A stretch of DNA of 64,000 nt from an uncultured Acidobacteriota bacterium (lineage in GTDB: Bacteria; Acidobacteriota; UBA6911; RPQK01; JAPXNP01), in NCBI GenBank assembly GCA_963777605.1, contig CAVZRV010000006.1, positions 96,001-160,000 on the forward strand. The letters are read 5' to 3'. Shown in pieces: positions 7,546-40,377 of this stretch. A model generated the notes under the pieces. The model had not been told where the DNA came from. It did no database searches and saw only the letters and a program-made list of their open reading frames with translations. The position numbers and the translations under genes were made by a program. How positions within the stretch are numbered: position 1 is the first letter of the stretch; the number at the start of each line of letters is the position of its first letter.

Positions 7546-9250
7546 TCAACCGCGGAGATCCTTGACCGTCAGAACGATCCTCTCCTGCCCCCTGAACTCC
7601 TCCCGGGCGACCGTGTAAGCGAGGTCCACCCGCTGTCCGGTCTGAAGTTGGGAAGCCAGCTCCCCGTGCCGCCACCAGATTATGTCGATCGGCATGCCAT
7701 TTCCACCGGCACTCAGCTTCAAATGCCGGTCCCCGATCACCCAGGGCCCCCCTTCGATCTCCACTTGCTCCGAGGAAAAAATCGGGACCGGGTTTCCAAT
7801 CCCGAACGGGGCCAGGCTCTCCAGTTGCCGGCAAAGGTCCAGTGTGACCGACTCGACTGAAAGCACCGCGTCGACCGGAATTTCGGGCTGCAGTTCCTCC
7901 TCTCGAATATTGGCGGCCGCATATTCCTGCAACGCAGTGCGCACCTCGTCCAATCCCAGAATCGAGCAGTATTTGGGTTTCAGGGTGCAGCCTGCCGCCT
8001 GGGCATGTCCGCCGAAGCGAACGAAGTAGCGGGCATAGTGCTGGATCGAATCGAGGAGATGGAACCCGGGAATACTCCGACCAGACCCCTGTGCCCCGTC
8101 CTCCCCGAGAGAGAGGACGATTACCGGACGATGGAACCGGTGGACGAGCCGGGCGGCAACATTTCCCAACACGCCCCGGTGCCATCCTTCCCCGGCCACA
8201 AGCAGAAATGGCCGGTCCCAGGATCCCGGGTCCTCCTCGATTCGACGGTTGATCTCCTTCAGGATCCGGTCCTCTTCGGCTCGCCTTTGACGGTTTTTCT
8301 CGATTCATCTCTTCAACAATCGCCGCTGCTTCGGCGGGGGTTCTGGCGGAGAAGAGTTCAACGATCTCCTTGCCTCCTCCCATGCGGGTGAAGGCATTAA
8401 TCCTCGGTGCCAGCTTGAAGCCGACATCGACATGATCTACCCGCCGGCCGACACCGGCAGCCTGAAGCAGCGCCTGAAGCCCCAGGTTTGTGGTCTCCGG
8501 AAGGTCACTCAGTCCCAACTTGACGATCACCCGGTTTTCCCCGGTCAGGGGAACCATGTCGGCGATCGTCCCGATAGCGACCACTTTCAGGAAATGGGGC
8601 ACCAGATCGCCCCTCCCACGCTCGGTAAACATGGCCTGCACGATCTTGAGCCCCACTCCGACGGCTGCCAGTTCTTTGTCCGGGTAGTTGCAGTCGGACC
8701 GTTGCGGATTGAGCACAGCCAAGGCCTCAGGCAATGCTTCGGCGGGTAGGTGGTGATCAGTGACGATCAGGTCCAGACCAATTTCACGGGCATGACTGCA
8801 AGCCTCGAAATCGCGGATGCCGCAGTCCACCGTGATCACCAGGGAGTAACCGTCATGGCGGGCCTGGTCAAGGACGTCGCTCTTCATTCCGTAGCCGTCC
8901 TCAAGGCGATGAGGGATATGATAGCCGACGTCCCCGCCCAGCATCTCGAGGGCCCGTTTCAGAACCACGGTCGCGGTGATTCCATCGACATCGTAGTCGC
9001 CGTAGACCAGGATCTTTTCACCATTTTCGATGGCGGCACCCAGGCGGTCAACCACCGTCCTCATGTCCTTCATGAGAAAGGGATCGTGCAGATCGGAGAT
9101 GGACGGGTTGAGAAATCTCCGCGCTCGTTCCGGATCGGTGATGTCGCGGTTCACGAGGAGGGACGCAACCATCGACGAGACCCCCAGTTCGCGGCTGAGG
9201 ACACGAACCTGTTCCGGCTTGGGCTCGAGACACTTCCACAGGTACTGCAC
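7546..9250 (-). CDS. recJ: ssDNA exonuclease RecJ, with an apparent +1 frameshift at 8294-8298
   Basis: YGDYDVDG, ITVDCG, VTDHH and APRINA in ORF 7511..9250; DHHA1 motifs GSGRS and GGHAQAAG in ORF 7546..8199. The two join (MNRENRQRRAEE) if one A of a 5-A run is removed. Confidence 0.93.
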
Positions 9251-27487: not shown

Positions 27488-28954
27488 TTACTCGTAATAC
27501 CACTTTGACATCCAGGGATCGCAAGTCCGGCGCTGAAACTCCTTCAGTTTTCCCTTGAGTTCCTCCAGCACGCTCGCGAAGTCCGGGTCTCCGGCAAGGT
27601 TCTTCGATTCCCAGGGGTCCTTGACGATGTCGTAGAGTTCGAACTCGGGCCGATGAATGTATTCCCCGACGGTTCGGGCTCCGTAGGGAGTCTCTGGTCC
27701 TTTTCGATAGGCGGCCTGCCAGGTTGCAGCAGCCCAAAGATCGGACGCAAATGGAAACGGCAGCGGATGGGCAATGTTCCAGATCAGCTTGTACTGACGG
27801 GTTCGGACGGCCCTCATCGGGTAGTACATCTGGAGCTCGTGAAAGGTGTGTGAAGCATAGGCCTCATCCCAGCCTTCCGGGTGCTCCTGCTCGAGAATCC
27901 CGAGGAAGGAGCGTCCGTGCAACCGGTGACGAGCGGGGAATTGGTCCCGCACGGCCGGAATGGTCACCTGATTCTCATATTCGGGTTGCTCGACCCCTGC
28001 AAAGTCCAGGATCGTCGGCGTGAGATCCGCCCAGTTCACCAGGGCGTCGTTTACAACTCCCCGCTTCACAAGATAGGGATTTCTGACGATGCAGGGCGAC
28101 TTCAACCCCGGTTCGTAAACCGTCGTTTTGGCACCAGGAAAAGCGATTCCATGATCCGAAATGTAGATGAACAGCGTGTCGTCAAACACGCCGATATCCT
28201 CGAGTACCTCGACCAGCATCCCGACTCCCTGGTCGAGACGGGACACGGACTGGTAATACTGGGCCAACTCAGCCCGGGCTTCCGGTGAGTCGGGAAGGAA
28301 CGGCGGCACGATCACCTCCGACGGGTCATAAGTGATCGTCCGGATATCCGGGTATCCGTCCGGCCGGTTGCCGAACCGGTCCGGACGAAGGGGAGACGAC
28401 TCGACCACCCCCCCTCCGCGGTGCGGATCCGAGACACAAAAGTAAAGGAAAAAGGGCTCTTCGGTCGACTTCTCGATGAAGCCGCGACACTTGGCGATCA
28501 TCTCGGACGGGCTTCGCTCCGAACCGGGGTAAAACTCGTCGAACTGATAGACCGACTCGGGAGCGACGTGGTACTTGCCGACTGACGCGGTCCGATAGCC
28601 TTTCTCCCCCAGTAGAACCGGCAGGCTCTTGAGGTTTTCAAATGACCAGAAGTGGTTGTAGTCGTGCTGGTGTCCATACTGGCCGGTCCTGTGGTTGTAG
28701 AGCCCGGTCAGGATCACCGATCGACTGGCACTGCAGCTCGCAGTCGTCGCAAATGCGTTGGTGAACCGGGTGCCTCCCTCGGCCAGGGAATCCAGGTGCG
28801 GCGTCTGCACGACCGGGTTTCCATAGCAGCCGGCATCCTGCCCGTGGTCGTCGGCCACGAACAGAACGATATTCCGCTTAGCCGCGTAGCCATTCCGGGC
28901 ACCAGCCAGCATCAACAGAACAAACCCGAAGACAATAACCCTACCGAGTTTCAT
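27488..28954 (-). CDS. Exported Cys-type sulfatase (N-sulfoglucosamine sulfohydrolase-like)
   Basis: ADDHG, CSASRSVILTG (formylglycine motif), GKYHV, DPHR, SDHG and HTFHELQMYYPMR motifs. Confidence 0.9.
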   Translation of the reverse strand: MKLGRVIVFGFVLLMLAGARNGYAAKRNIVLFVADDHGQDAGCYGNPVVQTPHLDSLAEGGTRFTNAFATTASCSASRSVILTGLYNHRTGQYGHQHDYNHFWSFENLKSLPVLLGEKGYRTASVGKYHVAPESVYQFDEFYPGSERSPSEMIAKCRGFIEKSTEEPFFLYFCVSDPHRGGGVVESSPLRPDRFGNRPDGYPDIRTITYDPSEVIVPPFLPDSPEARAELAQYYQSVSRLDQGVGMLVEVLEDIGVFDDTLFIYISDHGIAFPGAKTTVYEPGLKSPCIVRNPYLVKRGVVNDALVNWADLTPTILDFAGVEQPEYENQVTIPAVRDQFPARHRLHGRSFLGILEQEHPEGWDEAYASHTFHELQMYYPMRAVRTRQYKLIWNIAHPLPFPFASDLWAAATWQAAYRKGPETPYGARTVGEYIHRPEFELYDIVKDPWESKNLAGDPDFASVLEELKGKLKEFQRRTCDPWMSKWYYE

Positions 28955-29086
28955 CACAACCTCCGGTCGGGAATTCTAGCACCGCCTCCCAAGCTTCGAC
29001 ACCCCAGGCCGGCGTGCACGGCCAGGCTGCCCACCGCCGTGCTTCTTGAACTCGAATGATGGGCTCCGGTATCTTTGTGTGCAAGC

Positions 29087-29629
29087 ATGAAACTCCGGGT
29101 CACCCTTTTCTTGCTGTTCTTTATCGGTGTTGCGTTTGCCAATGACGCCGAGCTGAACACACTCAGCTTCGACGCCGATGCGCTCAAGCAGGAGTTCAAC
29201 GCGACCAACGACCGCTCCAGGATGATCGTGATCCTGTCTCCGACCTGACCGCATTGTCTTCAGAGGGCCTCTGAACTTGAACAAATTCTTGAGCAACTCC
29301 CAAACCGGCCGATCCGGGTCCTTCTCTTGTGGTCTCCGTTCATGCCGTACGACACTCGCGGCGCCGCTCAGCGAGCGACCACGTACGTCCCCGACGAGCG
29401 GGTGACTCAGTACTGGGATCTCTGGAAATACGGGTCGCGCACACTGGCACAGAAACTGGGGATTCCAGAACTTGAGGCGTGGGATCTGTTCGCCTTTTAC
29501 AGACCCAATCTAAGCTGGAAGGACAAGACGCCCGAGCCCACCTTCTGGATGCAGGCCCGGGGACTCAAACACGGCGAAGAGTATTCCAAGGCGGCATTGA
29601 CGAGCAAGCTGGAAACCTGGTTGCCCTGA
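29087..29629 (+). CDS. Exported thioredoxin-fold selenoprotein (UxxC), 180 aa with UGA read-through
   Basis: Signal peptide (…GVAFA/ND), ...RMIVILSPT-TGA(29246-29248)-PHC..., continuing in frame into track ORF 29327..29629; SECIS-like hairpin just downstream of the UGA. Confidence 0.85.
29254..29284 (+). promoter_or_regulatory. Candidate bacterial SECIS element
   Basis: TTCAGAG-GGC-CTCTGAA 17-nt hairpin at 29259-29275, starting after a 10-nt spacer from the UGA; G-led apical loop; lower stem TTGT/ACAA. Confidence 0.75.
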
Positions 29630-29755
29630 TGTCCGAACCGGGCCACCGTGCCTTGATCTAGTCGAGCAAGTTGATTCCCCCCACAGCTTGCCATTCTCTA
29701 TCACCTCTGTGCACAATCGGTGCGGGCACAGATCAAGTGCTCAAAGGCAGGCAAC

Positions 29756-31474
29756 ATGAATCGCTCTTCTTCCCCAATCTCTCTTCTCTTCATTCTCTCG
29801 GTCCTGGCAACGCTTTTCGTCCCTGCCGCGGCTGTAGCGCAACCGGCCCAGTCCGCTGTCGTGCGGATCGACCCGGGTTTGGCCCTGGTCGATTTCCTGG
29901 CCTTTGACCAGAGTGGAAAATTCGTCCCGGACCTGCGGGCGGACGAGGTGCAGCTCTTCGTTGACGGAAAGCCCGAGAAAGTTGATTTTTTCCAACTGGC
30001 TGACTTTCGCCCAGAACCGTCGGGTGGCGAATCCTCCCTGGGTTCGACGCCGGGCAAGGAGTACACCGAGATCCGCGGCCCCAGCCCGATCATTTTCGTC
30101 TTTGACCTCGACAGTATGGAACCGAGCTCGCTGGCCCCTGCCCGGGAGTCTCTCAAGTCATTTCTTCAACAACCGCACCAAAATCGCCGTCTTTACATGC
30201 TTTTTGCGATTCAGGGTGGCCTCTCCCTGCGCTGCCGGTTGACTGATGACCCGCAAGAGGTTCTCGATGCAGCAGAGTTGCTCACGATCAACCGAACCCC
30301 GGACACCTTCATCGGGCTGATCGAGCAGCTCGCCAAGACCTTCCGAACCCTTGCCCCGGCTCGCCTCTATCTTCAGGCCATGCAGGATTCGGTCTCCGAA
30401 GCCAAGATCTTCGTCAATAACGCGATCAACCACTTGACGACCTTCACCGAAGCGGCGACCGGGCTCGCCCACCAACTCGAGCCGCTTCCCGGTCGAAAGA
30501 GCGTGGTTCTGTATTCAAGCGGTTATCCGGTCACACCTTCGTCCACGGCTTTCCAGATCCTCCTCCAGTTCAACCACAGTGCCGGCCCTGAAGACATCAT
30601 GCCGATGCACATACTGACCGCCCGGTTTGGCCAGCTGACGGATGAAACCGGAACTGACCGGCTGCGGGCCGCACTCCGCGAACTCAACGGGAGTCAGACG
30701 TCCGTTTACGCAGTGAACACTGCCCGGTTGACTGGCGAGGGCCTGGCTAACTCTCCCGAGTCCCAATACATTCCTCGCTCTCTTCAGGGGCAGTACAACA
30801 GCGAGGACCGGAGCAGCCGAAAGTCGTTTCTCGAGCGCGTATCCGATTCAACGGACGGGCTTTCGTCGGAGCTGACAGCGTTCGAAAAGCTCGAGAAACG
30901 GCTGCTTGAAGACAATTCCGCCTATTACGTCCTGGGGTTCCGGCCGTCCTGGAAGTTCAAGGAAGGATCGTTCAAGAAGTACGAGGTCAAGGTCGATCGG
31001 CCGGGAATTTCCGTTAAAGCCCGCTCCGGCTACCTGCTCCGCAAAGAGGACACGGCCCGGGACACGATTGAGTCCGCCTTTGAATTTCCCGAAGTATTTC
31101 GCGACTTCCCAACCGCGGGCACGGCCTCGGTGACAGGGAACCAGGTCTCGGTGCAACTTTCGATTCCCACCCAGGCGCTTCTATTCGGGACGGAGAACGG
31201 GAAGTGGGTTTGCAGGATTCGGGTATTAGGGGTGCTGGTCGATTCGTCGGGGACCTGGCAAACCGGGGGAAACAAGTACAGTATGGCCCGGGAGTTCAAC
31301 CTCTCACTGGACAAGGCGCGCCTCGAGACATTGTTGAAGACCGCCAACGTCACCGCTCCACTGACCGCCCAGGCACCGCCGGGACGCTACGAGCTGATCC
31401 TTGTCACCCGCCAGTGGCCGAGTGGAAGGGTCTCCACCTGGTACACCGACGTAGCGGTCCCGGAGCCCCAATAG
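29756..31474 (+). CDS. VWA-related protein, acidobacterial type
   Basis: LVDFLAFDQSGKFVPDL, FVFDLDSM, LPGRKSVVLYSSG, YYVLGF and VKARSGY; signal peptide. Confidence 0.85.
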   Translation: MNRSSSPISLLFILSVLATLFVPAAAVAQPAQSAVVRIDPGLALVDFLAFDQSGKFVPDLRADEVQLFVDGKPEKVDFFQLADFRPEPSGGESSLGSTPGKEYTEIRGPSPIIFVFDLDSMEPSSLAPARESLKSFLQQPHQNRRLYMLFAIQGGLSLRCRLTDDPQEVLDAAELLTINRTPDTFIGLIEQLAKTFRTLAPARLYLQAMQDSVSEAKIFVNNAINHLTTFTEAATGLAHQLEPLPGRKSVVLYSSGYPVTPSSTAFQILLQFNHSAGPEDIMPMHILTARFGQLTDETGTDRLRAALRELNGSQTSVYAVNTARLTGEGLANSPESQYIPRSLQGQYNSEDRSSRKSFLERVSDSTDGLSSELTAFEKLEKRLLEDNSAYYVLGFRPSWKFKEGSFKKYEVKVDRPGISVKARSGYLLRKEDTARDTIESAFEFPEVFRDFPTAGTASVTGNQVSVQLSIPTQALLFGTENGKWVCRIRVLGVLVDSSGTWQTGGNKYSMAREFNLSLDKARLETLLKTANVTAPLTAQAPPGRYELILVTRQWPSGRVSTWYTDVAVPEPQ

Positions 31475-32431: not shown

Positions 32432-32751
32432 CGTCTCTCCTTCAGTATCGACATAACGCAATCAACGCCTGCTTTCGGCGCTCCTCCCTGTTTGAACAAT
32501 GAGAAGACCTCCCCGAACCCGAGTCTATGCACCAGGACCGGGTCGGTCAATAGTTCGTACTCGGTTTCCCCTTCGATCAATTCCACGAGCCTTCACGACC
32601 ATCCCCATCTTTTGGAAATTGCACCAGAGCATAGCCTGAGTATACAATCCTGTGTCATCTCTTTCTCTACTTGTCATTTCCATCAATTCCAGTACTTCAC
32701 TGTTCACTGGCGGTGAAGATCCGAAGGAATCTCTTTCGAGGAGACAGCACC

Positions 32752-35700
32752 ATGCGCGCTGAGGGTTTGGTTCGAGTCAACCTTTTGATCATGACCGTCT
32801 TGCTGGCCTGTTCCCAGGGCCAGGCAGCCACGACGCTCAATTTCCCCAGGGTATCGTTCGACCCCAACACCCTAACCGGAGTCGCATTCGTGAATCCCAC
32901 GGATCAGACTGCAACCGTTCAGGTGGTCGCGTACGGAGAAGATGGCAAACCCGTTACGGGAGACGCGTTCGCGAACCCGGCCGAGTTGACGATCGCACCT
33001 TACCGCCAGGAAGCGCGTCTCCTGAGTGAAATCTTCAGCGGATCCTTCCCATCCGACCAGGTCGCGTGGATGGAGGCAACCAGCAGTGTCGACGGAATCA
33101 CTGGCTTTTTTCTCTACCTCGACCCCTCGCTTTCCTTTTTCGACGGAGCGGACCTGCCTGAGACTCAGCGGAAAATTGTCTTCAACGAGGTCCGCTCGGA
33201 CGATTCATCTTCGACTGAGCTAAACGTTTTCAACCCCAACCCGTCGCCGACGATCCTCACCCTGACCCTGTTTCGCCCCAATCTGGCGCCACTCACACTG
33301 AACAATCCGATCAACCTGGCCGCCCACGGTGTGACCCGCTTCGACGCCGGTTCGGTATTCGGGCTCGATTCGATTCCGGTGGGCAGTACCCTCACCGTGG
33401 TCGCATCTGCCCCGGTCGGAGGTTTCGAATTTGTCAGGTTCCCGGGCCAGGATCTGGTGGGACTGAACGCCAAACCGGGCACCGAATCCCTGTCTGCACT
33501 CTATTTTCCTCAATTGGCGGTGCTTGGCCCCTGGAAGACGGAACTGGGTGTCGTCAGCTATGCCGAACAGCCTTCCATCCTCACCATCTCGGCATACCGG
33601 GGAGACGGGTCCCTGTACGCGGAGCCCGATTTGATCGGGTCCAATCCGGTGACGCGAATCCTCCCCGCGGGCCAGACGATGCTGGAAGACATCTCGACCC
33701 TCTTTCAGTTCCCCGGAACCGAAACCCTGACCGGGTGGCTCAAGGTCGAATCGACCTCCGATGCAGTCAACGGGTTCATGTCTTACGGGATTCCGATCGC
33801 CGGCTCCCGAGCGGCCGTTGCCGCTCAGGGCATCCCTCGGAAAATTGCCCTCTTCTCTCACATTGCCACAGCCTTCGGCTATTTCACCGGGGTCGCGTTG
33901 TTGAATCCGGGCACGATCCCCACCAACTATCGGGTGATCGCATTTACGAAGGAGGGGGCTCAGATCGGGACTTACGAAGGGCTGCTCCGACCCGGCGAAC
34001 GGGTCAGCCAGCTCATTACCGAGATGATCGAAGGAACCGCGGCTCAGAGTTCGGGATTCTTTATTGTCGTTGCCGAACAGCCCATCTACATGAGCTCACT
34101 CTTCGGAACTTCGACCGTCCTGGCCAACATTGCTCCCCAGTCCAGTTCGGCGCTGGACGGAAATACGATCGGAGGCCAGTCCTCGACAGTGACTCCCCAT
34201 CTGGCCGTTGTCAGACCGGGTGCCTCGTTCCAGTTCCAGGCTTCCGCCTTCACCATCGACCCGGTCTGGAAAGTCGAGAGCTTGCCGGGCGGTGATCCGG
34301 AGATTGGAAACATCTCCCAGAGTGGTCTCTTCACCGCTCCCTCTGCTGCTCCCGACCTTCTTCCGGTGACCGTGTCCGCCGAAAGCGAAAACCAGGTATC
34401 CGGGGCGGCAGCGGATATTCTCGATCCTTCCGTACTCCTCCGGGGCCAGGGAACGGTTCTTTCGGTGGCTTACCTCCGCAACCTGAAGCGACTCTATACC
34501 GCCGAACTCAGCGCACAGGCCATTCAAGCGACGAGTTCCGGGCAGTCCCCGGCAGCCGACCCGCCCACCAGCCGAATCGTTCGGGTGTTTCCCGGAGCCG
34601 CAGTACAGCGGGCGGAGTTTCAGGGGGAGCGCATCTCCAAGATGATTCCCTACACGGCCTCGAACGGGACGGAGTTTCTGCTGTTTACGGCTAACTCCAG
34701 CGGAAGAGTCATTCGGCTGAACCCGGATACCGGGGAAATTCGTGATGTCATTACCGGTCTGAACGCTCCCTCTGCCCTGGTGCTCGACCCGGTGGGCGGG
34801 AACCTGCTTGTGGCCGAGCAGAATCAGATCCGAAGCTTCCCTCGACCTCTCCTGGAAGGTGACCTGCCCGCTCAAAGTCAGACCGATATTGCAGCTCAAC
34901 GATCCTCGACGCGACGGCCCGTCGCGGGTTCGGCTCAGGTGGTCTCCGGGCTCGTCTCACCCCAGGGCCTCGTCGTCGATGCCTGTTCAGGCCGACTCTA
35001 TTTCAGTGACGCCGGCTCGGTCGTGGAGTTTGATCGGCTGACCGGTCAGTCCCGCATCCTTGTCAATGACCTCGAGGCTCCCGGGCAACTGCTTGCGATT
35101 TACCGTTCCGGGCAATCCTGCCCTTCCGCGTTTCATTTGCTCGTCTCAAATCCCGGGGGAGAGTCACCAATTCTGGTAGTTCCCTCCGAGGACCTGGTCC
35201 TGCCGTGGGTGGGTCTGCCGGATACGGCGGACCTGGCATTCGTCCCTAAAGACAGTTCTCTCGGCACCGCCGAATCAGTCCTGCTCGGCGAAGTCGATGG
35301 AAGCAGCGGACAGGTTGAACGCGTCCGGGTTTCCGGACTCTATTCCGATCATCCGACCAACCCGTCTGGTGCCATACCGGCGCTGGACTTTGCCGATCCA
35401 CTCGGAGACACGTTCGGAAGCGGAACCTATCAGCCGGACGCGTGGAGCGTCACGACTTTCTTTTCCGAGCCCTCAACAACCCAGAACAATGCAGCGCTCG
35501 TGTTCATGCAGGGCGACTCCACCAGCAACGGGAACGAGATCGTCTCGGGATTGAAACTGACCTTTCGAAATCATGTGAGCCCTGCCGGGAGCGGACAGGA
35601 GGACGACCTGTTCGGCTGGATCGATCTTGATACGGACCAGGATCCCCTGACGGGCCGGACTTCGTACGTCGACGAGCGGACCAACTATTCCGCCGGGATT

Positions 35701-35982
35701 GGGAGTGATTTCATCCTCGACTTCGGAGGCTTCAGCTCTGGTGACGGGACGATCCCGCTTCTGCAGGTCGTGGGAGAAAGCCTGGAAGAGGTCGCTCGCA
35801 TTCGAGTCGCTTTCGTGGATGAGCCTGATTTCGGCGGCACCAGCGTCCTGCTCGATTTTCACATTGACGATATCGATCCGGACGGCCGAGCCAACGTGGC
35901 GATCCTGGTCGGGACCGCCGAGGAATCCACCGACGCCATCCCGAACGGAGGTTATCTCAGCTCCGGTTACTCCGCGCCCTGA
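32752..35982 (+). CDS. Large exported modular surface protein (repeated beta domains, Ig-like, NHL-type propeller)
   Basis: Signal peptide; three related modules (LNFPR..TGVAFVNP / LYFPQ..WKTELG / LFSHIA..TGVALLNP); GNISQSGLFTAP Ig motif; GLNAPSALVLD and GLVSPQGLVVD NHL-like blades. Confidence 0.75.
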   Translation: MRAEGLVRVNLLIMTVLLACSQGQAATTLNFPRVSFDPNTLTGVAFVNPTDQTATVQVVAYGEDGKPVTGDAFANPAELTIAPYRQEARLLSEIFSGSFPSDQVAWMEATSSVDGITGFFLYLDPSLSFFDGADLPETQRKIVFNEVRSDDSSSTELNVFNPNPSPTILTLTLFRPNLAPLTLNNPINLAAHGVTRFDAGSVFGLDSIPVGSTLTVVASAPVGGFEFVRFPGQDLVGLNAKPGTESLSALYFPQLAVLGPWKTELGVVSYAEQPSILTISAYRGDGSLYAEPDLIGSNPVTRILPAGQTMLEDISTLFQFPGTETLTGWLKVESTSDAVNGFMSYGIPIAGSRAAVAAQGIPRKIALFSHIATAFGYFTGVALLNPGTIPTNYRVIAFTKEGAQIGTYEGLLRPGERVSQLITEMIEGTAAQSSGFFIVVAEQPIYMSSLFGTSTVLANIAPQSSSALDGNTIGGQSSTVTPHLAVVRPGASFQFQASAFTIDPVWKVESLPGGDPEIGNISQSGLFTAPSAAPDLLPVTVSAESENQVSGAAADILDPSVLLRGQGTVLSVAYLRNLKRLYTAELSAQAIQATSSGQSPAADPPTSRIVRVFPGAAVQRAEFQGERISKMIPYTASNGTEFLLFTANSSGRVIRLNPDTGEIRDVITGLNAPSALVLDPVGGNLLVAEQNQIRSFPRPLLEGDLPAQSQTDIAAQRSSTRRPVAGSAQVVSGLVSPQGLVVDACSGRLYFSDAGSVVEFDRLTGQSRILVNDLEAPGQLLAIYRSGQSCPSAFHLLVSNPGGESPILVVPSEDLVLPWVGLPDTADLAFVPKDSSLGTAESVLLGEVDGSSGQVERVRVSGLYSDHPTNPSGAIPALDFADPLGDTFGSGTYQPDAWSVTTFFSEPSTTQNNAALVFMQGDSTSNGNEIVSGLKLTFRNHVSPAGSGQEDDLFGWIDLDTDQDPLTGRTSYVDERTNYSAGIGSDFILDFGGFSSGDGTIPLLQVVGESLEEVARIRVAFVDEPDFGGTSVLLDFHIDDIDPDGRANVAILVGTAEESTDAIPNGGYLSSGYSAP

Positions 35983-38825
35983 GAAACGAGCTCCGGGTTT
36001 CTTGGCAAGCTGAGCAGATTGGCGATCAGGCGATAGGCTCCCGGAACTCCTTCGGGCAGCTGGCGGTAGAACGCGTAGGCGCAGTACACATAGATTCCTC
36101 GACCGTAATGGGCGTAGAGGAAGCCGCCTGACTGCGGATCCTGCCCGGGATCATGGGTTTCGACCAGCGCCTCGTAGTGGGCGTCCCAGGACCGCATGAA
36201 CTTTGATCCCCGCTGCTCGATCCAGCCTGCGAAATCATCCGCCCCGATCCGGTTGGGCCAGGTCAAAGCCGGGTTTTCGGGCTTCAGGATCTCGACCGGA
36301 GAACGCTCATCGGTCACTTCCTCGGGATTTCGCCCCATCTCATAGGGATAGGGGCCGAAGTTTTCGTCATATTCGGGAGTGTTGTATTGGACCACCACCA
36401 CTCCGCCGTTCTTCACGTAGTCGAGCAGTCGCCCGTTGTGGGTCTTGAGAGCCGGGCGCGCGGCGTAAGTTCGAACACCCAGGAGGATGACGTCGAAGCG
36501 GCTGAGGTCTCCCGACGCCAGGTCCTGGTCACTCAGAAAGGTGACCTGGATACCCAGGTTGGTCAGGTATTCGGGAACGGAGTCCCCGGTCCCGGTGATG
36601 TACGCGACGCTCAGGTCTTTGGCAACTTTCACGTCCACGCCCCGAGTCTCGTAAAGCGCAGGTCGGTAGAGGTTGTAGGGCCTCAATCCGGGGTAACCAG
36701 CCTGCCGCAATCCCTCGCTGTACTCACGTCCATCGTAGGTGGCGACGGCACGAATATCATAGGCCCGATCCTCCACGCCTGCCGGGAATACCCGAAAGGC
36801 GATTCGGTCTTCTTCACCGTCCCGAGCAGTCTGGTAACGCGCCGACTCCGGTTCGGCTCGCCACCCCTGGGGCAGGCTCAACCTCAAGTCGCCCTCCGCG
36901 GCCCCTTTCACGTTGCTGCCCACGGTGACCATCAATTCGAACGACTCTGCGCCAAATGGCACCACTCCCCGGCCCGGAGACACGGCAACCGAGACAGGGG
37001 GCCCGACCACGAGTGGGTTCATGACGGCACCCAACCCGGTGACCCTCTTGAGCGTCTGAACCACCTGCCCGGTTTCCAGCTTGACACCCCGGTAGTTCAG
37101 AGTCAGCCGAGCGGCAAGTGGGTATGGCCGGTGTGAGCGACCCAGAAACTGCGTCTCTTTCACGTCGTAGTAGGCCTGTTCAATTCCCGGGCGGGTGAAG
37201 TAGGGGCGGGTGTAGGTCGGGTTGGAGGGCACCTTGACTTTGAACCGGACGTCTTGTGGGGTGTTCTCCGCCAGGTCCCGCGGAAACTCCGCCGAGGTCT
37301 CAATCTGCCAGGGAGAGGAATCGGAGGCAACCAGCTCGACTCGGGCCAGTTGTACCGGCTCGGAGGTCTGGTTGGTCACCGATACCTTGACCTGGAACTC
37401 CAGGTCCGGAATCGCCAACTGGAAGGTGTCTCGCATCCGGCGGAACATGGGGCTCCCCTCGGGTTCATCCGGGCTGACGACGGCCAGGGCCGACACTCCG
37501 AGCGCCTCCAAAAGTGCTTCGTTGAACTGCTTTTCCTTAACTCGGAGCTCAAACACCACGTCCATCCGGGCCGGCTGTGGCAAATCGGATGCCTCCACGC
37601 TGGAGATCAGCGCACGGGTGGCGGTCAATCCTTCCGCCAGCACGGGGCCGACTCGCCCTGTTTCCTCCGCCGAGAACTCGTTCAGAGCGCGATCGACCAA
37701 TTCCTGAATCTGTTCCAGGCCCAGGAGAAGAAATGACGGCGGGTTGTCGCCAGCCAAACCGGAGATGCCCTTGAGAGTTGTGTCGATGCCATCGAAGAGC
37801 CCTGCCTCGGTTTCCCCCGACTTGACCCGCGAGCCGAACCGATAGTAGTCGGACGAAAAGCTCCCCGCCGGGGGAACCGAAGCTCCCCCGTTTTGACATT
37901 TCTGCAGTCCGAGCCCTTCCCGGGAAATCTGCAGGAAGTTGAATCCCAGCAGCGGGTCATAACTCCCGGACTCCACCTTCACCGTCGTCGGCATGCCGCC
38001 GTCGGTCCAGGTATTCGCGACGTAGTTCTGGAAACCGGCCGGAGACCACTTCTGCGTTGCGTAGTTGTACAACCCTTTCGGATCGAGGCTTCCTTCCTTG
38101 AGGGACGAGGGGACCCGGGCGTACACCTTGAGCGGGTTCCAGGGCCTCAGTCCCTCTTTGAGTTGCTCCGGGTAAACGGTTGGATCCCCGGCCAGCCGGA
38201 AGGCTTCCTGGGCGAGCTGACCGGTCGTCTGGTGGTTTCCGTGCCCGTCGGTCGCCCCTCCAACAAACACGGAGGTCAGGACCAGTGGCCTTGTCATGCG
38301 GATGACCCGGACGACGTCGGAACGCACCCGGTCATAGCCCCACTCGTCGAAAGCCTCCTCCCTGGTTTTCGAAAAGCCGTAGTCGGTCGCCCGGCTCCAG
38401 TACTGAGAGACACCATAATAGCGGTCGGCAGCGAGCAACTCCTCCGTCCGCACCAATCCGAGGGCATCGAAAAAGTCGTCGGACATCACGTTGGCCCCGC
38501 CCTCGCCCCGGGTCAGGCAGAGAAGACCGACTCGCGCTCCGTTACCCCGTGATTCCAGAGTCAGCAGACCACCGTCCTCGTCATCGGGGTGGGCGGTGAT
38601 CATCAGCAGACTGGCCCGGGTCCCCAGCTTACGGAGGCTCTGGTAGAGGCCCACCGCTCCCCGGTCGTAACTCAGAGGCGTCGCGAATTCATCGGGTTCA
38701 ATGGTGGTTTCGGGGTTCCCTGGGAAGCGTGTCTCGTTTGCAGCAGACAGCGCAATCGAGCCGGCGATGACCGCCGGCAAGGCAACGGAAATCCAACCCC
38801 ATCGTGGCACGTATCTAAGCTTCAT
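35967..38825 (-). CDS. Exported PIG-L/LmbE family deacetylase with NEW3-like and C-terminal glutamine-amidotransferase-like domains
   Basis: AHPDDED, LTRGEGG, RTEELLAA, DYGFSK, HGNH and FYRQLPEGVPGAYRLIANL motifs; GGAGG SD before ATG 38825. Confidence 0.9.
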   Translation of the reverse strand: MKLRYVPRWGWISVALPAVIAGSIALSAANETRFPGNPETTIEPDEFATPLSYDRGAVGLYQSLRKLGTRASLLMITAHPDDEDGGLLTLESRGNGARVGLLCLTRGEGGANVMSDDFFDALGLVRTEELLAADRYYGVSQYWSRATDYGFSKTREEAFDEWGYDRVRSDVVRVIRMTRPLVLTSVFVGGATDGHGNHQTTGQLAQEAFRLAGDPTVYPEQLKEGLRPWNPLKVYARVPSSLKEGSLDPKGLYNYATQKWSPAGFQNYVANTWTDGGMPTTVKVESGSYDPLLGFNFLQISREGLGLQKCQNGGASVPPAGSFSSDYYRFGSRVKSGETEAGLFDGIDTTLKGISGLAGDNPPSFLLLGLEQIQELVDRALNEFSAEETGRVGPVLAEGLTATRALISSVEASDLPQPARMDVVFELRVKEKQFNEALLEALGVSALAVVSPDEPEGSPMFRRMRDTFQLAIPDLEFQVKVSVTNQTSEPVQLARVELVASDSSPWQIETSAEFPRDLAENTPQDVRFKVKVPSNPTYTRPYFTRPGIEQAYYDVKETQFLGRSHRPYPLAARLTLNYRGVKLETGQVVQTLKRVTGLGAVMNPLVVGPPVSVAVSPGRGVVPFGAESFELMVTVGSNVKGAAEGDLRLSLPQGWRAEPESARYQTARDGEEDRIAFRVFPAGVEDRAYDIRAVATYDGREYSEGLRQAGYPGLRPYNLYRPALYETRGVDVKVAKDLSVAYITGTGDSVPEYLTNLGIQVTFLSDQDLASGDLSRFDVILLGVRTYAARPALKTHNGRLLDYVKNGGVVVVQYNTPEYDENFGPYPYEMGRNPEEVTDERSPVEILKPENPALTWPNRIGADDFAGWIEQRGSKFMRSWDAHYEALVETHDPGQDPQSGGFLYAHYGRGIYVYCAYAFYRQLPEGVPGAYRLIANLLSLPRNPELVSQGAE

Positions 38826-38871
38826 CAGACCTCCCCCGAAACATGTCGAATCAGATTCGATCCCTCGTTCG

Positions 38872-38951
38872 AAACGCAAGGGCGCCAAGACCGCCAGGGT
38901 CCTTTTGGGTTCAAGAGAAGAAAACCTTTGCGCCTTGCTGTCTTGGCGGTT
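38872..38951. repeat. REP-like imperfect inverted repeat of CGCMARG units
   Basis: AAACGCAAGGGCGCCAAGACCGCCAGG ... CTTTGCGCCTTGCTGTCTTGGCGGTT, located between two co-oriented genes. Confidence 0.45.
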
Positions 38952-38985
38952 CAATCCAACGTGGATATCCTCCCCGAACGCCCCC

Positions 38986-40377
38986 TCATCCTTGCACCTC
39001 ACGTTGTCCTCTTGACCGCAGGAAGAGGAAGTAGGCGGCGACCGATGCGCCCAGGAACGCGGCCGAGAAGATCACGCCCGCCATTGGGCCGGTGAAGAAA
39101 ATATAGAGCCAGAGTGCGAGCGAGATCAATGCCGGGAACGGGTAGAACCACATGAGGAAAGGATGCGGAATGTCTTTCCGATAGCGATGAAGCAAGATCA
39201 CGCCCAGGCACTGCCAGATAAACCGGAGCAGTATCTGCACCTGAATCAACCAGCTGACCAACTGACCAAGCGTAAAGAAGCAGAATGGCAGAGAGATCAC
39301 TCCGAGCGTGATCAACGAGACGTAGGGGAAATGCTTCGTCGGGTGGACCTTCGCGAACACTGCAAAGAAGTCCCCGTCCCGGGCGGCCGCAAAGGGGATT
39401 CGCGAGTATCCCAGGATAACGGCATAGAGCGACGACGCCGCCACGAAAAGGATCAATCCCGTCATGACGATGCCCGCAATGTGCCCGACCTCCGGGTCGG
39501 TGAAGGTCCTCGCGATGAAAACCGAGGCGACGGTCCGGGTCTGCTCGGCTTCCTGCCAGGGAATCATACCAACGATGACCGTGCTCATCAGGATGTAGAG
39601 CGTCGCCACCACAAAGATTGCCAGGACGATAGATCGGGGAACGACTTTGGTCGGGTTCTTGATCTCCTCGGCAATGTTGCAGACCTGGTTGTAGCCACCG
39701 TAACTGTACATGGCCAAAACCGAAGCCGCGCCCAGGCTGTAGATCCATTCACTGTCGATCCGAAAGGCATGCTCGGGAAAGGTAAAGGCCTGCGCAGGAG
39801 AGAAGTTGAACAATCCGGCGATGATCACCCAGCCCACCGTCACCAGGACTCCACCCAGCATCACGACAGCTAATTTTCCGATCGACTCGATGTCCCGGTA
39901 CAGCAGTGCCGTCATCCCCAGGCAGACGAAGGCAGCTACCAGGTTGTGCTCGAGCGGCGACATGGTGGACCAGTAGAAGCCGAGGTAGTCGGCAAACCCG
40001 ACGGCGCCTCCGGCAATCGAGAGGGGTGCGACCAGGATGATCTGGAAGATGAAGATGAACGCCATCATTCGCCCGATCCCAAATGGCTTGTAGGCTTCGC
40101 GCAGGTAGAGGTAAGGGCCGCCGCTGCCGGGTATTGCCGCCCCGAGCTGCGCGTACACCAGACCGTCGCAAAGGGCCAGAAAGGCTCCAGCCACCCAGGC
40201 GTAGATGATGTGCGGCCCGTGCATGGCCGCGATCATGAAAGGAATAGTCAGGAAGGGGCCGACCCCGACCATCCCGATGATGTTCGTGGCCGTGGCCTGC
40301 AGTAACCCCATGCCCCGCTCCAGGTGCGGGGACTCGTCCAACGGTGTACTCAATTCAGCCGCACTTTCCGAGTTCAT
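38986..40377 (-). CDS. APC-family amino acid/amine permease
   Basis: MVGVGPF, PGSGGPYLYL, YSYGGY..IAEEIKNP and SRIPFAAARDG motifs; about 12 TM segments. Confidence 0.92.
   Translation of the reverse strand: MNSESAAELSTPLDESPHLERGMGLLQATATNIIGMVGVGPFLTIPFMIAAMHGPHIIYAWVAGAFLALCDGLVYAQLGAAIPGSGGPYLYLREAYKPFGIGRMMAFIFIFQIILVAPLSIAGGAVGFADYLGFYWSTMSPLEHNLVAAFVCLGMTALLYRDIESIGKLAVVMLGGVLVTVGWVIIAGLFNFSPAQAFTFPEHAFRIDSEWIYSLGAASVLAMYSYGGYNQVCNIAEEIKNPTKVVPRSIVLAIFVVATLYILMSTVIVGMIPWQEAEQTRTVASVFIARTFTDPEVGHIAGIVMTGLILFVAASSLYAVILGYSRIPFAAARDGDFFAVFAKVHPTKHFPYVSLITLGVISLPFCFFTLGQLVSWLIQVQILLRFIWQCLGVILLHRYRKDIPHPFLMWFYPFPALISLALWLYIFFTGPMAGVIFSAAFLGASVAAYFLFLRSRGQREVQG

Follow-up and report, generated by a model that had tools for sequence, protein, structure and literature searches.

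How is a TGA triplet to be read when it interrupts an otherwise open frame at the very position where a thioredoxin-like protein would carry the first cysteine of its redox motif? This question is raised by a locus on the plus strand of a stretch of 64,000 nucleotides (the window), taken from contig 6 of the assembly of an uncultured Acidobacteriota bacterium (6.7 Mb in 53 contigs, 96.7% complete). A frame of 180 codons runs here from the ATG at 29087 to a TGA at 29627-29629, and its codon 54 (29246-29248) is likewise TGA; for this locus, the list of open reading frames (ORFs) compiled with translation table 11 holds only 29075-29248 (57 amino acids) and 29327-29629 (100 amino acids, TTG start). 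The first-pass annotation of the sequence had proposed that the pieces form one gene with selenocysteine (Sec, U) in the motif SPT-U-PHC. The ATG at 29087, the TGA at codon 54, the motif and the open frame to 29629 are all borne out by the sequence, as is the remark that the ORF track keeps only the last 100 residues behind the TGA. Translated with TGA as U, the frame yields 180 residues with the N-terminus MKLRVTLFLLFFIGVAFA/ND and the central stretch ...RMIVILSPT-U-PHC-LQRASELEQIL.... From the comparison of sequences set out below, we conclude that 29087-29629 is very probably the gene for a small exported thioredoxin-fold selenoprotein, the in-frame UGA of which is read as Sec. The features on which this reading draws are the following:

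29087..29629, plus strand: candidate complete selenoprotein gene, 180 codons and a TGA stop; homologues align from about residue 5 to residue 179 across the internal TGA.
29087..29143, plus strand: predicted Sec-type signal peptide, residues 1-19, with MKLR, a hydrophobic core and AFA before N20.
29246..29248, plus strand: putative UGA selenocysteine codon (Sec54); the column is TGA in 32 of 43 and TGT/TGC in 11 of 43 distinct homologous loci.
29246..29257, plus strand: codons 54-57, which encode the redox motif U-P-H-C at the N-terminal end of helix 1; both redox positions are at least 90% conserved in an alignment of 48 sequences.
29259..29275, plus strand: putative selenocysteine insertion sequence (SECIS) hairpin with a 7-bp stem and a GGC loop: TTCAGAG (29259-29265), GGC (29266-29268), CTCTGAA (29269-29275).
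29627..29629, plus strand: predicted true stop codon, TGA; homologues end at the same place, and no hairpin lies downstream.

The reading is carried above all by the homologues. In a six-frame search, the read-through protein had matches in 58 of 61 genomes from relatives within the same family and order, and most of these matches contained one internal TGA. Among 21 loci fetched from these relatives, the variable column of SPT[U/C][PG]HC is TGA in 15 and Cys in six, with both flanks conserved; an enlarged set of 43 distinct loci, from which three duplicates had been dropped, gives the 32 TGA and 11 TGT/TGC listed above. The homologue search across the UGA, which the first-pass annotation had asked for, thus found Cys or TGA at exactly that column. 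Across the phylum, sampled evenly, 65 of 401 genomes match at E ≤ 1e-10, and a count from the match table assigns one in-frame TGA to 64 of the 87 matched places and none to the other 23; the position of the TGA was confirmed only for the fetched loci, four of which (L090-L093) belong to other families or classes. Of the data used, one row of the alignment and a few rows of the tables come from three unpublished genomes (G018, G083, G202), on which no conclusion rests. A single-protein search for related loci yielded six, every record of which is titled Acidobacteriota. The genome of the window itself contains a paralogue with 48% identity, one TGA and the motif SPT-U-GHC (C7:377181-377702, minus strand, corresponding to L042 and to L053:8001-8522). 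Since the TGA recurs in 32 homologous loci, a sequencing error at this site is very unlikely; moreover, no change of the genetic code is needed, because TGA serves as a stop at other sites of the genome, the end of the selenoprotein gene itself among them.

A search of 1.84 billion cluster representatives returned 1035 proteins at E ≤ 0.001, 309 at E ≤ 1e-10 and nine at E ≤ 1e-30. The best 150 include fragments 83-119 residues long, which start at query positions 65-99, as well as a 53-residue fragment that corresponds to residues 1-53 with 85% identity: Judged by their sequences, both kinds are remnants of Sec forms left by gene callers. The fragments are recorded as "hypothetical protein" and a full-length Cys form as "DsbA family protein [Acidobacteriota bacterium]". 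For a natural Cys-form relative, the nearest clusters in the ESM Atlas are also labelled "hypothetical protein" (0.96-0.97), with AhpC/TlpA-like clusters reaching only 0.88.

The second element of the locus is the hairpin that the first-pass annotation had placed 10 nt behind the UGA. The 17-nt structure is present as described, with a spacer at 29249-29258 and a loop that starts 17 nt past the UGA. According to the available part of a 2026 review, the model of the bacterial SECIS comprises a loop of 3-9 nt, a stem of 4-16 bp, a G at loop position 1 or 2, a distance of 16-37 nt between UGA and loop and a minimum free energy of at most -7.5 kcal/mol (PMC13188914); the 3-nt GGC loop, the 7-bp stem, the 17-nt spacing and the loop G of the window element all fit. 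From the codon that precedes the TGA to 45 nt past it, the alignment of the 32 TGA forms is free of gaps; its consensus is TGTCTTCGGGGGGCCTCCGAAGT. Within it, the family hairpin reads TTCGGGG-GGC-CTCCGAA, and the loop position G24 is invariant in all 32 sequences, for which RNAalifold predicts the identical 7-bp stem with double changes at five of seven pairs. Covariation was tested on an 8-pair version that consists of the 7-bp stem and the flanking C-G pair: 95.3% of the 256 cells pair, compared with 27-69% when the 3' partner is slid by one to three columns, and compensatory changes occur at six of the eight tested pairs (13 cells), with none of 500 shuffles attaining any of the five measures. 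These compensatory changes swap encoded residues (Q-R, R-G, G-R) yet preserve the pairs. The Leu codon preceding the stem ends in T in 32/32 TGA forms and is CTT in only 3/11 Cys forms; most Cys forms have no hairpin, and two (L039, L041) retain a partial relic. Hairpins of the homologues reach -11 to -18 kcal/mol over 52 nt. On these alignments, the hairpin is under constraint at the level of RNA in this family, and the proposal that it serves as a bacterial SECIS is upheld by its covariation together with its loop size, stem length, loop G and spacing. With the SECIS of the E. coli fdhF type, it shares the small hairpin about 10-11 nt past the UGA and the G that opens a small apical loop; it differs from that element, which contains a bulged U, by its perfect 7-bp stem without such a bulge and its 3-nt GGC loop, and its consensus sequence is peculiar to this family.

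The genome also encodes what is required for decoding, in agreement with the earlier claim that the organism has the Sec trait. We found tRNA-Sec (C7:942802-942896, 70.5 bits; called SeC(tca) by ARAGORN), selA (528 bits), selB (354 bits) and selD (C7:931111-932034, minus strand, 363 bits), each match exceeding its curated cut-off. The selD gene lies about 11 kb from tRNA-Sec and contains one in-frame TGA; from its sequence, SelD of this genome is itself a selenoprotein of the Sec type. A selA match is present in 55 of the 61 relatives and in 301 of the 401 genomes of the phylum sample. As read from the tables, 63 of the 65 family-bearing genomes possess selA, and the other two (G047, G050) carry selB and tRNA-Sec; G059, which has the Cys form only, gives no selA match. 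This co-occurrence is consistent with Sec decoding and discriminates little: With selA present in almost all genomes of the order and in many of those sampled from the phylum, the test is weak.

The predicted fold places the UGA at a redox-active site. An AlphaFold2 model based on the 48-sequence alignment reaches a predicted local distance difference test (pLDDT) score of 92.6 and a predicted template modelling score of 0.86, with only the first 20 residues below a pLDDT of 70. The assignment of UxxC to the CxxC position of thioredoxins is supported by this model, in which strand 44-50 leads to Sec54 and helix 55-70 follows, the arrangement of the thioredoxin active site. A Foldseek search of the PDB gave 22 matches at E ≤ 0.001, headed by 1lu4 (DsbE of M. 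tuberculosis; E 2.1e-5, template modelling scores 0.50/0.64) and followed by DsbF, then SdbA and ResA. VIA-align, run against 48,161 representative chains, likewise ranks 1lu4 best (Z 12.8, root mean square deviation 2.7 Å, 123 residues); the runners-up are ResA (Z 12.6), Chlorobium DsbE, SdbA, CcmG and TlpA at Z 10.4-12.6, and GPx, Sco and peroxiredoxins are found in the lists at Z of about 10-11. According to the model, the window protein thus belongs by its thioredoxin fold with the TlpA/DsbE/ResA class, and its Sec residue lies where helix 1 begins.

Members of this class (1lu4, 2f9s, 3gl3, 1jfu, 1kng; TlpA, DsbE/CcmG and ResA) have in common with the window protein the thioredoxin fold with an extra central helix-strand-helix, export (here predicted) and a redox pair xxxC that opens helix 1, and 123-131 residues can be aligned at 2.6-3.1 Å with Z 10.4-12.8. 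However, identity amounts to only 6-16%, none of PF00578, PF08534, PF13905 and PF13098 matches at E ≤ 1, and the window family has Sec in place of the first Cys as well as a conserved residue set of its own. This set comprises F37, N38, R45, S51, P52, W82, D111 (in a Y-W-D stretch), A131, W132, W144, P149 and P151. The last two, candidates for the cis-Pro loop that faces the active site in this class, are at least 90% conserved and lie just ahead of strand 153-156. In Pfam, the window protein had no match at E ≤ 1 but a single weak and unrelated one, and in NCBIfam it had none. For the other 47 members of the alignment, NCBIfam gave weak matches only (TIGR00411 in 7/48, best E 0.0023; TIGR02187 in one, E 0.0091), and a profile search of the PDB reached a best E of 0.02, confined to the surroundings of CxxC. 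Membership in the DsbA family was considered as well, given the NCBI record that names a Cys-form relative accordingly and the dipeptide P-H, which E. coli DsbA shares with U-P-H-C. It was rejected: The window protein has no Pfam match to PF01323/PF13462, hhalign against the DsbA-like domain from the same genome returns a probability of 3.4% over 42 columns around CxxC only, and the model is devoid of the large helical insert typical of DsbA, its strands 76-82 and 134-138 being separated by only two short helices and one strand.

Several observations nevertheless count against the selenoprotein gene as we read it. Folded alone, the hairpin of the window attains -6.8 kcal/mol over 21 nt (z -1.66), which is not significant and stays just short of the -7.5 kcal/mol of the published model; with its flanks, in a 40-nt fold from the UGA, it reaches -8.0 kcal/mol (z -0.61), and 39/200 shuffles fold as well. 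The case for the hairpin therefore rests on comparison, where the aligned rows are kin, so that the shuffle control overstates significance and the slid-partner control is the fairer one. The hairpin of the paralogue in the same genome deviates from the consensus: It reads TTCAG-GCGTGTT-CTGAA, with 5-6 bp and a larger loop, and energy minimisation folds the sequence into another structure. In five TGA-form genomes among the 61 relatives, selA was not found at E ≤ 1e-30, although all five carry selB and tRNA-Sec. The signal peptide and its cleavage site were called by eye only; hydrophobic N-termini are also present in full-length homologues, and the low-confidence helix 4-14 of the model lies outside the folded domain. 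For the source, no RNA run is listed, only two DNA metagenome runs that hold 5-6% of the sampled words. Finally, the neighbourhoods of the window copy and of its paralogue yield no functional clue.

If the TGA were a true stop, the locus would be a pseudogene or would comprise two small genes, one for a 53-residue peptide and one for a 100-residue protein starting at TTG 29327. This is how gene callers read it, public records contain "hypothetical protein" fragments of 100-115 and of 53 residues, and the lone hairpin of the window, being not significant, fits such a view. It is, however, hard to reconcile with a TGA in the same column of 32/43 distinct loci and Cys in the other 11, with protein conservation that continues unbroken across the TGA, with a single thioredoxin domain that spans both halves at a pLDDT above 90, or with a covarying hairpin in a genome that has the full Sec machinery. 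We consider a genuine stop extremely improbable.

With the UGA read as Sec, expression would follow the standard bacterial mechanism: SelB with Sec-tRNA(Sec) would bind the mRNA hairpin at 29259-29275, and at the ribosome poised on UGA54, 10 nt upstream of the hairpin, Sec would be inserted and termination avoided. The second TGA (29627), which has no hairpin, would terminate translation. The signal peptide of about 19 residues would direct export across the inner membrane and leave a mature protein of about 161 residues. In this protein, the pair formed by Sec54, where helix 1 begins, and Cys57, one turn on and presumably facing the conserved Pro149-x-Pro151 loop, would cycle between the selenol/thiol and the selenenylsulfide state: The selenolate would attack a disulfide in the substrate, or some other oxidised sulfur, and the mixed Se-S bond would be resolved by Cys57. 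Of the periplasmic Sec-dependent oxidoreductase that the first-pass annotation had envisaged, the Sec dependence and the oxidoreductase fold are supported by the Sec column, the covarying hairpin, the machinery and the thioredoxin fold; the export and the redox role are predicted.

In which direction such a couple would work was addressed by looking at the redox partners in the genome and at the domains fused to distant relatives. The genome encodes a full DsbD (DsbD_N, transmembrane and Trx parts) and one separate exported DsbA-like protein (CPYC); neither DsbB nor VKOR was found in it, at 96.7% completeness. Of the 61 relatives, two have DsbB and 26 have VKOR; for the window's own family, the VKOR count is only 2/15 genomes. 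With DsbA-like protein and DsbD present and DsbB/VKOR scarce, the route by which DsbA is re-oxidised in these bacteria is puzzling in itself. In a Pfam scan of 27 distant relatives, we found fusions to MerT in two (P0047, P0100), to AhpC/TSA in one (P0141) and to HMA in five (clear in P0024, P0029 and P0100, below the Pfam cut-off in P0026 and P0166); further domains occur as fusion partners as well, 14 of the 27 scanned representatives had no family match, and the fused ones share about 30% identity with the window protein. In P0047, P0100, P0029 and P0024, the thioredoxin-like domain sits after MerT and/or HMA (MerP-like) domains, an order that suggests, for these relatives, a periplasmic role beside mercury or soft-metal transport. 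Next to MerT, HMA or AhpC/TSA, a dithiol usually acts in the reduced state.

Since its fold class, the DsbD of the genome and the domains joined to distant relatives all point towards a reduced working state, we tentatively propose that the window protein is a periplasmic reductant or isomerase that would be kept reduced by DsbD; of the roles considered, we take this one as the likeliest and give it somewhat less than an even chance. The same selenoprotein could instead be a periplasmic oxidant of the DsbA kind, which would pass its selenenylsulfide on to substrate cysteines and whose re-oxidation might require neither DsbB nor VKOR. With U-P-H-C and U-G-H-C, the family has counterparts of CPHC in DsbA and CGHC in PDI, both of them oxidants, and the dipeptides P-H/G-H, like the missing DsbB/VKOR, could favour this role over that of a reductant; to these may be added the title of the top structural match, 1lu4 (a secreted disulfide oxidoreductase), the scarcity of DsbB (2/61) and VKOR (26/61; 2/15 in the own family) among the relatives, and the tendency of the window's own family towards more gene copies, mostly three per genome. 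Yet the TlpA/ResA/CcmG fold class consists, by the titles of the structural matches, mostly of reductants, and Sec lowers the redox potential of a UxxC pair, as is reported for seleno-glutaredoxin. An oxidant would also have to be squared with DsbD, with the separate exported DsbA-like protein of the genome, and with VKOR-bearing genomes that retain TGA forms as well, so that complementarity is not clean; on balance, we regard it as unlikely, with a share of probability that still deserves attention. Less probable again is a target other than a disulfide, for which the protein would be a selenol peroxidase, a sulfenate reductase or a protein that binds or handles soft metals (Hg, Cu). The MerT, HMA and AhpC/TSA fusions among the 27 distant relatives and the GPx, Sco and peroxiredoxin matches at Z of about 10-11 point that way; the fusions are, however, limited to relatives of about 30% identity, the window's subfamily standing alone, no metal or peroxide genes adjoin either copy in the genome, and at least 90% of the 48 sequences retain the resolving Cys57, as befits a dithiol/disulfide couple.

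A bolder extension of the oxidant role, which we would call a long shot, is that the family acts as a Sec-dependent periplasmic disulfide catalyst that replaces DsbB/VKOR in many Acidobacteriota, with oxygen, peroxide or a small-molecule oxidant regenerating its selenenylsulfide directly. When the DsbB and VKOR matches are read side by side, neither was found in 35 of the 61 relatives, as in the window's genome. If true, disulfide catalysis free of DsbB and VKOR would explain the wide retention of the Sec trait in the phylum.

Does the locus belong to a selenoprotein family that is already known? Selenoproteins with a thioredoxin fold and a UxxC motif have been described since the early 2000s, and those catalogued resemble the window family in having Sec as the first residue of UxxC, Cys homologues, a SECIS in the coding region just past the UGA and a predicted redox function. 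The available part of the 2026 review counts 119 prokaryotic selenoprotein families in its Table 1, among them, with UxxC and a thioredoxin fold, Trx, Grx, Prx-like, DsbA-like form 1, DsbG-like and the thiol:disulfide interchange protein, and further the thiol-disulfide isomerase-like, redoxin, SaoT and HUIPC-motif kinds (PMC13188914). None of the Pfam and NCBIfam identifiers given in that table matches the window protein, and none of its NCBIfam identifiers occurs among the other 47 alignment members. Two families are identified by cd02966 only, thiol-disulfide isomerase-like and UGC-TlpA; the UGC motif of the latter differs from UPHC/UGHC. The "thiol-disulfide isomerase-like" family from the Sargasso Sea comprises, in the accessible part of its report, four sequences without a COG or Pfam identifier (PMC1088965); it is possible that the window family is this one. 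For the phylum, the portions at hand of two earlier surveys mention three selenoprotein families with four selenoproteins in Acidobacteria (PMC1794560) and three known and no new selenoprotein genes in one Acidobacteriota genome (PMC12013277). A literature search on selenoproteins of Acidobacteria/Acidobacteriota, including Solibacter usitatus, found no paper that describes the family, and searches for the motif strings UPHC and UGHC led to unrelated acronyms only. Judged against the catalogued families that have a Pfam or NCBIfam identifier, the window protein probably represents a new selenoprotein family of a well-known kind; that it is already listed under another name is less likely, though by no means remote.

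The distribution of Sec and Cys also bears on the history of the family. A quick maximum-likelihood tree of the 43 loci, calculated with the Sec/Cys residue masked, implies at least five changes between Sec and Cys, of which at least two are forced by well-supported branches. Shuffled labels give a mean of 10 changes, and as few as observed were obtained in 0/500 shuffles for the TGA-form label and in 1/500 for the Cys-form label. On this tree, rooted at the midpoint only, the Cys forms lie nested among the Sec forms. Since two of the Cys forms keep hairpin relics, a change from Sec to Cys is suggested in their lineages. One relative carries both forms side by side: At G010:C14:129947-131069 (L059, about 8001-9132), a TGA form is followed by a Cys form about 120 nt on. 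Another copy, G014:C5:1925712-1926219, matches in two pieces (query 12-57 with one TGA, and 56-179) that overlap by a few bases, and looks frameshifted or like a pseudogene or an assembly error.

In kind, nothing about this locus is surprising: UxxC, thioredoxin fold, coding-region SECIS and Cys homologues make up a textbook bacterial selenoprotein. It matters for annotation: Gene callers read the UGA as a stop and so routinely break up, into two "hypothetical" fragments, a family that is present in 58 of 61 genomes from the order of the window. A profile combined with the regular hairpin 10 nt past the UGA would permit annotators to recover such genes automatically. The family probably adds one more to the approximately 119 prokaryotic selenoprotein families, and it would give a soil phylum, in which selA is found in 301/401 sampled genomes, a widespread selenoprotein outside the cytoplasm, provided that the predicted export holds. 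With at least five Sec/Cys switches, two relics and a tandem pair, it offers a compact setting in which to ask under what conditions the cost of Sec pays off, the pair in G010 being a natural Sec/Cys comparison inside one genome.

The surroundings of the gene were examined as well. It is divergent, as noted in the first-pass annotation, from a sulfatase of the Cys type (27488-28957, minus strand; PF00884, E 1.8e-44; site C-S-A-S-R). The functional link to this enzyme, which that annotation itself had called speculative, was not sustained: When ORFs were clustered in 16-kb regions around 20 homologues and the window copy, no neighbour was common to the window copy and its closest relatives, and sulfatases occurred near only three other loci, all of them non-orthologous. 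The neighbourhood of the paralogue is conserved in six loci and consists of housekeeping genes (homoserine dehydrogenase, RNA methyltransferase, Zn-dehydrogenase, NAD-GDH). Of these, the RNA methyltransferase (TRAM and U5-MTase domains) is co-directional with the paralogue at L052:8506-9951 (plus strand) and convergent at L053:6236-7927 (plus strand) in the window's genome, with the other neighbours keeping their orientation between L052 and L053; this flip may reflect a local inversion or misread stop-to-stop frames.

Directly downstream of the selenoprotein gene lies an ORF of 584 codons (29720-31474, plus strand; probable ATG at 29756) with a signal-peptide-like N-terminus and no Pfam match, which was not present beside the examined homologues. 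A scan of 28850-29850 for promoters returned one promoter-like site at 29688-29717, downstream of the selenoprotein gene and ahead of the 584-codon ORF, and a scan of the same interval for terminators returned no terminator-like site. Further along, 32671-35982 (plus strand) encodes 1103 residues with only a weak DUF5719 match below the cut-off, and 35967-39002 (minus strand) encodes 1011 residues with a PIG-L deacetylase and an NPCBM-associated domain. Genes for glycan degradation are abundant nearby, including an alpha-galactosidase, a sulfatase, a 3-keto-disaccharide hydrolase and a xylose-isomerase-like TIM barrel.

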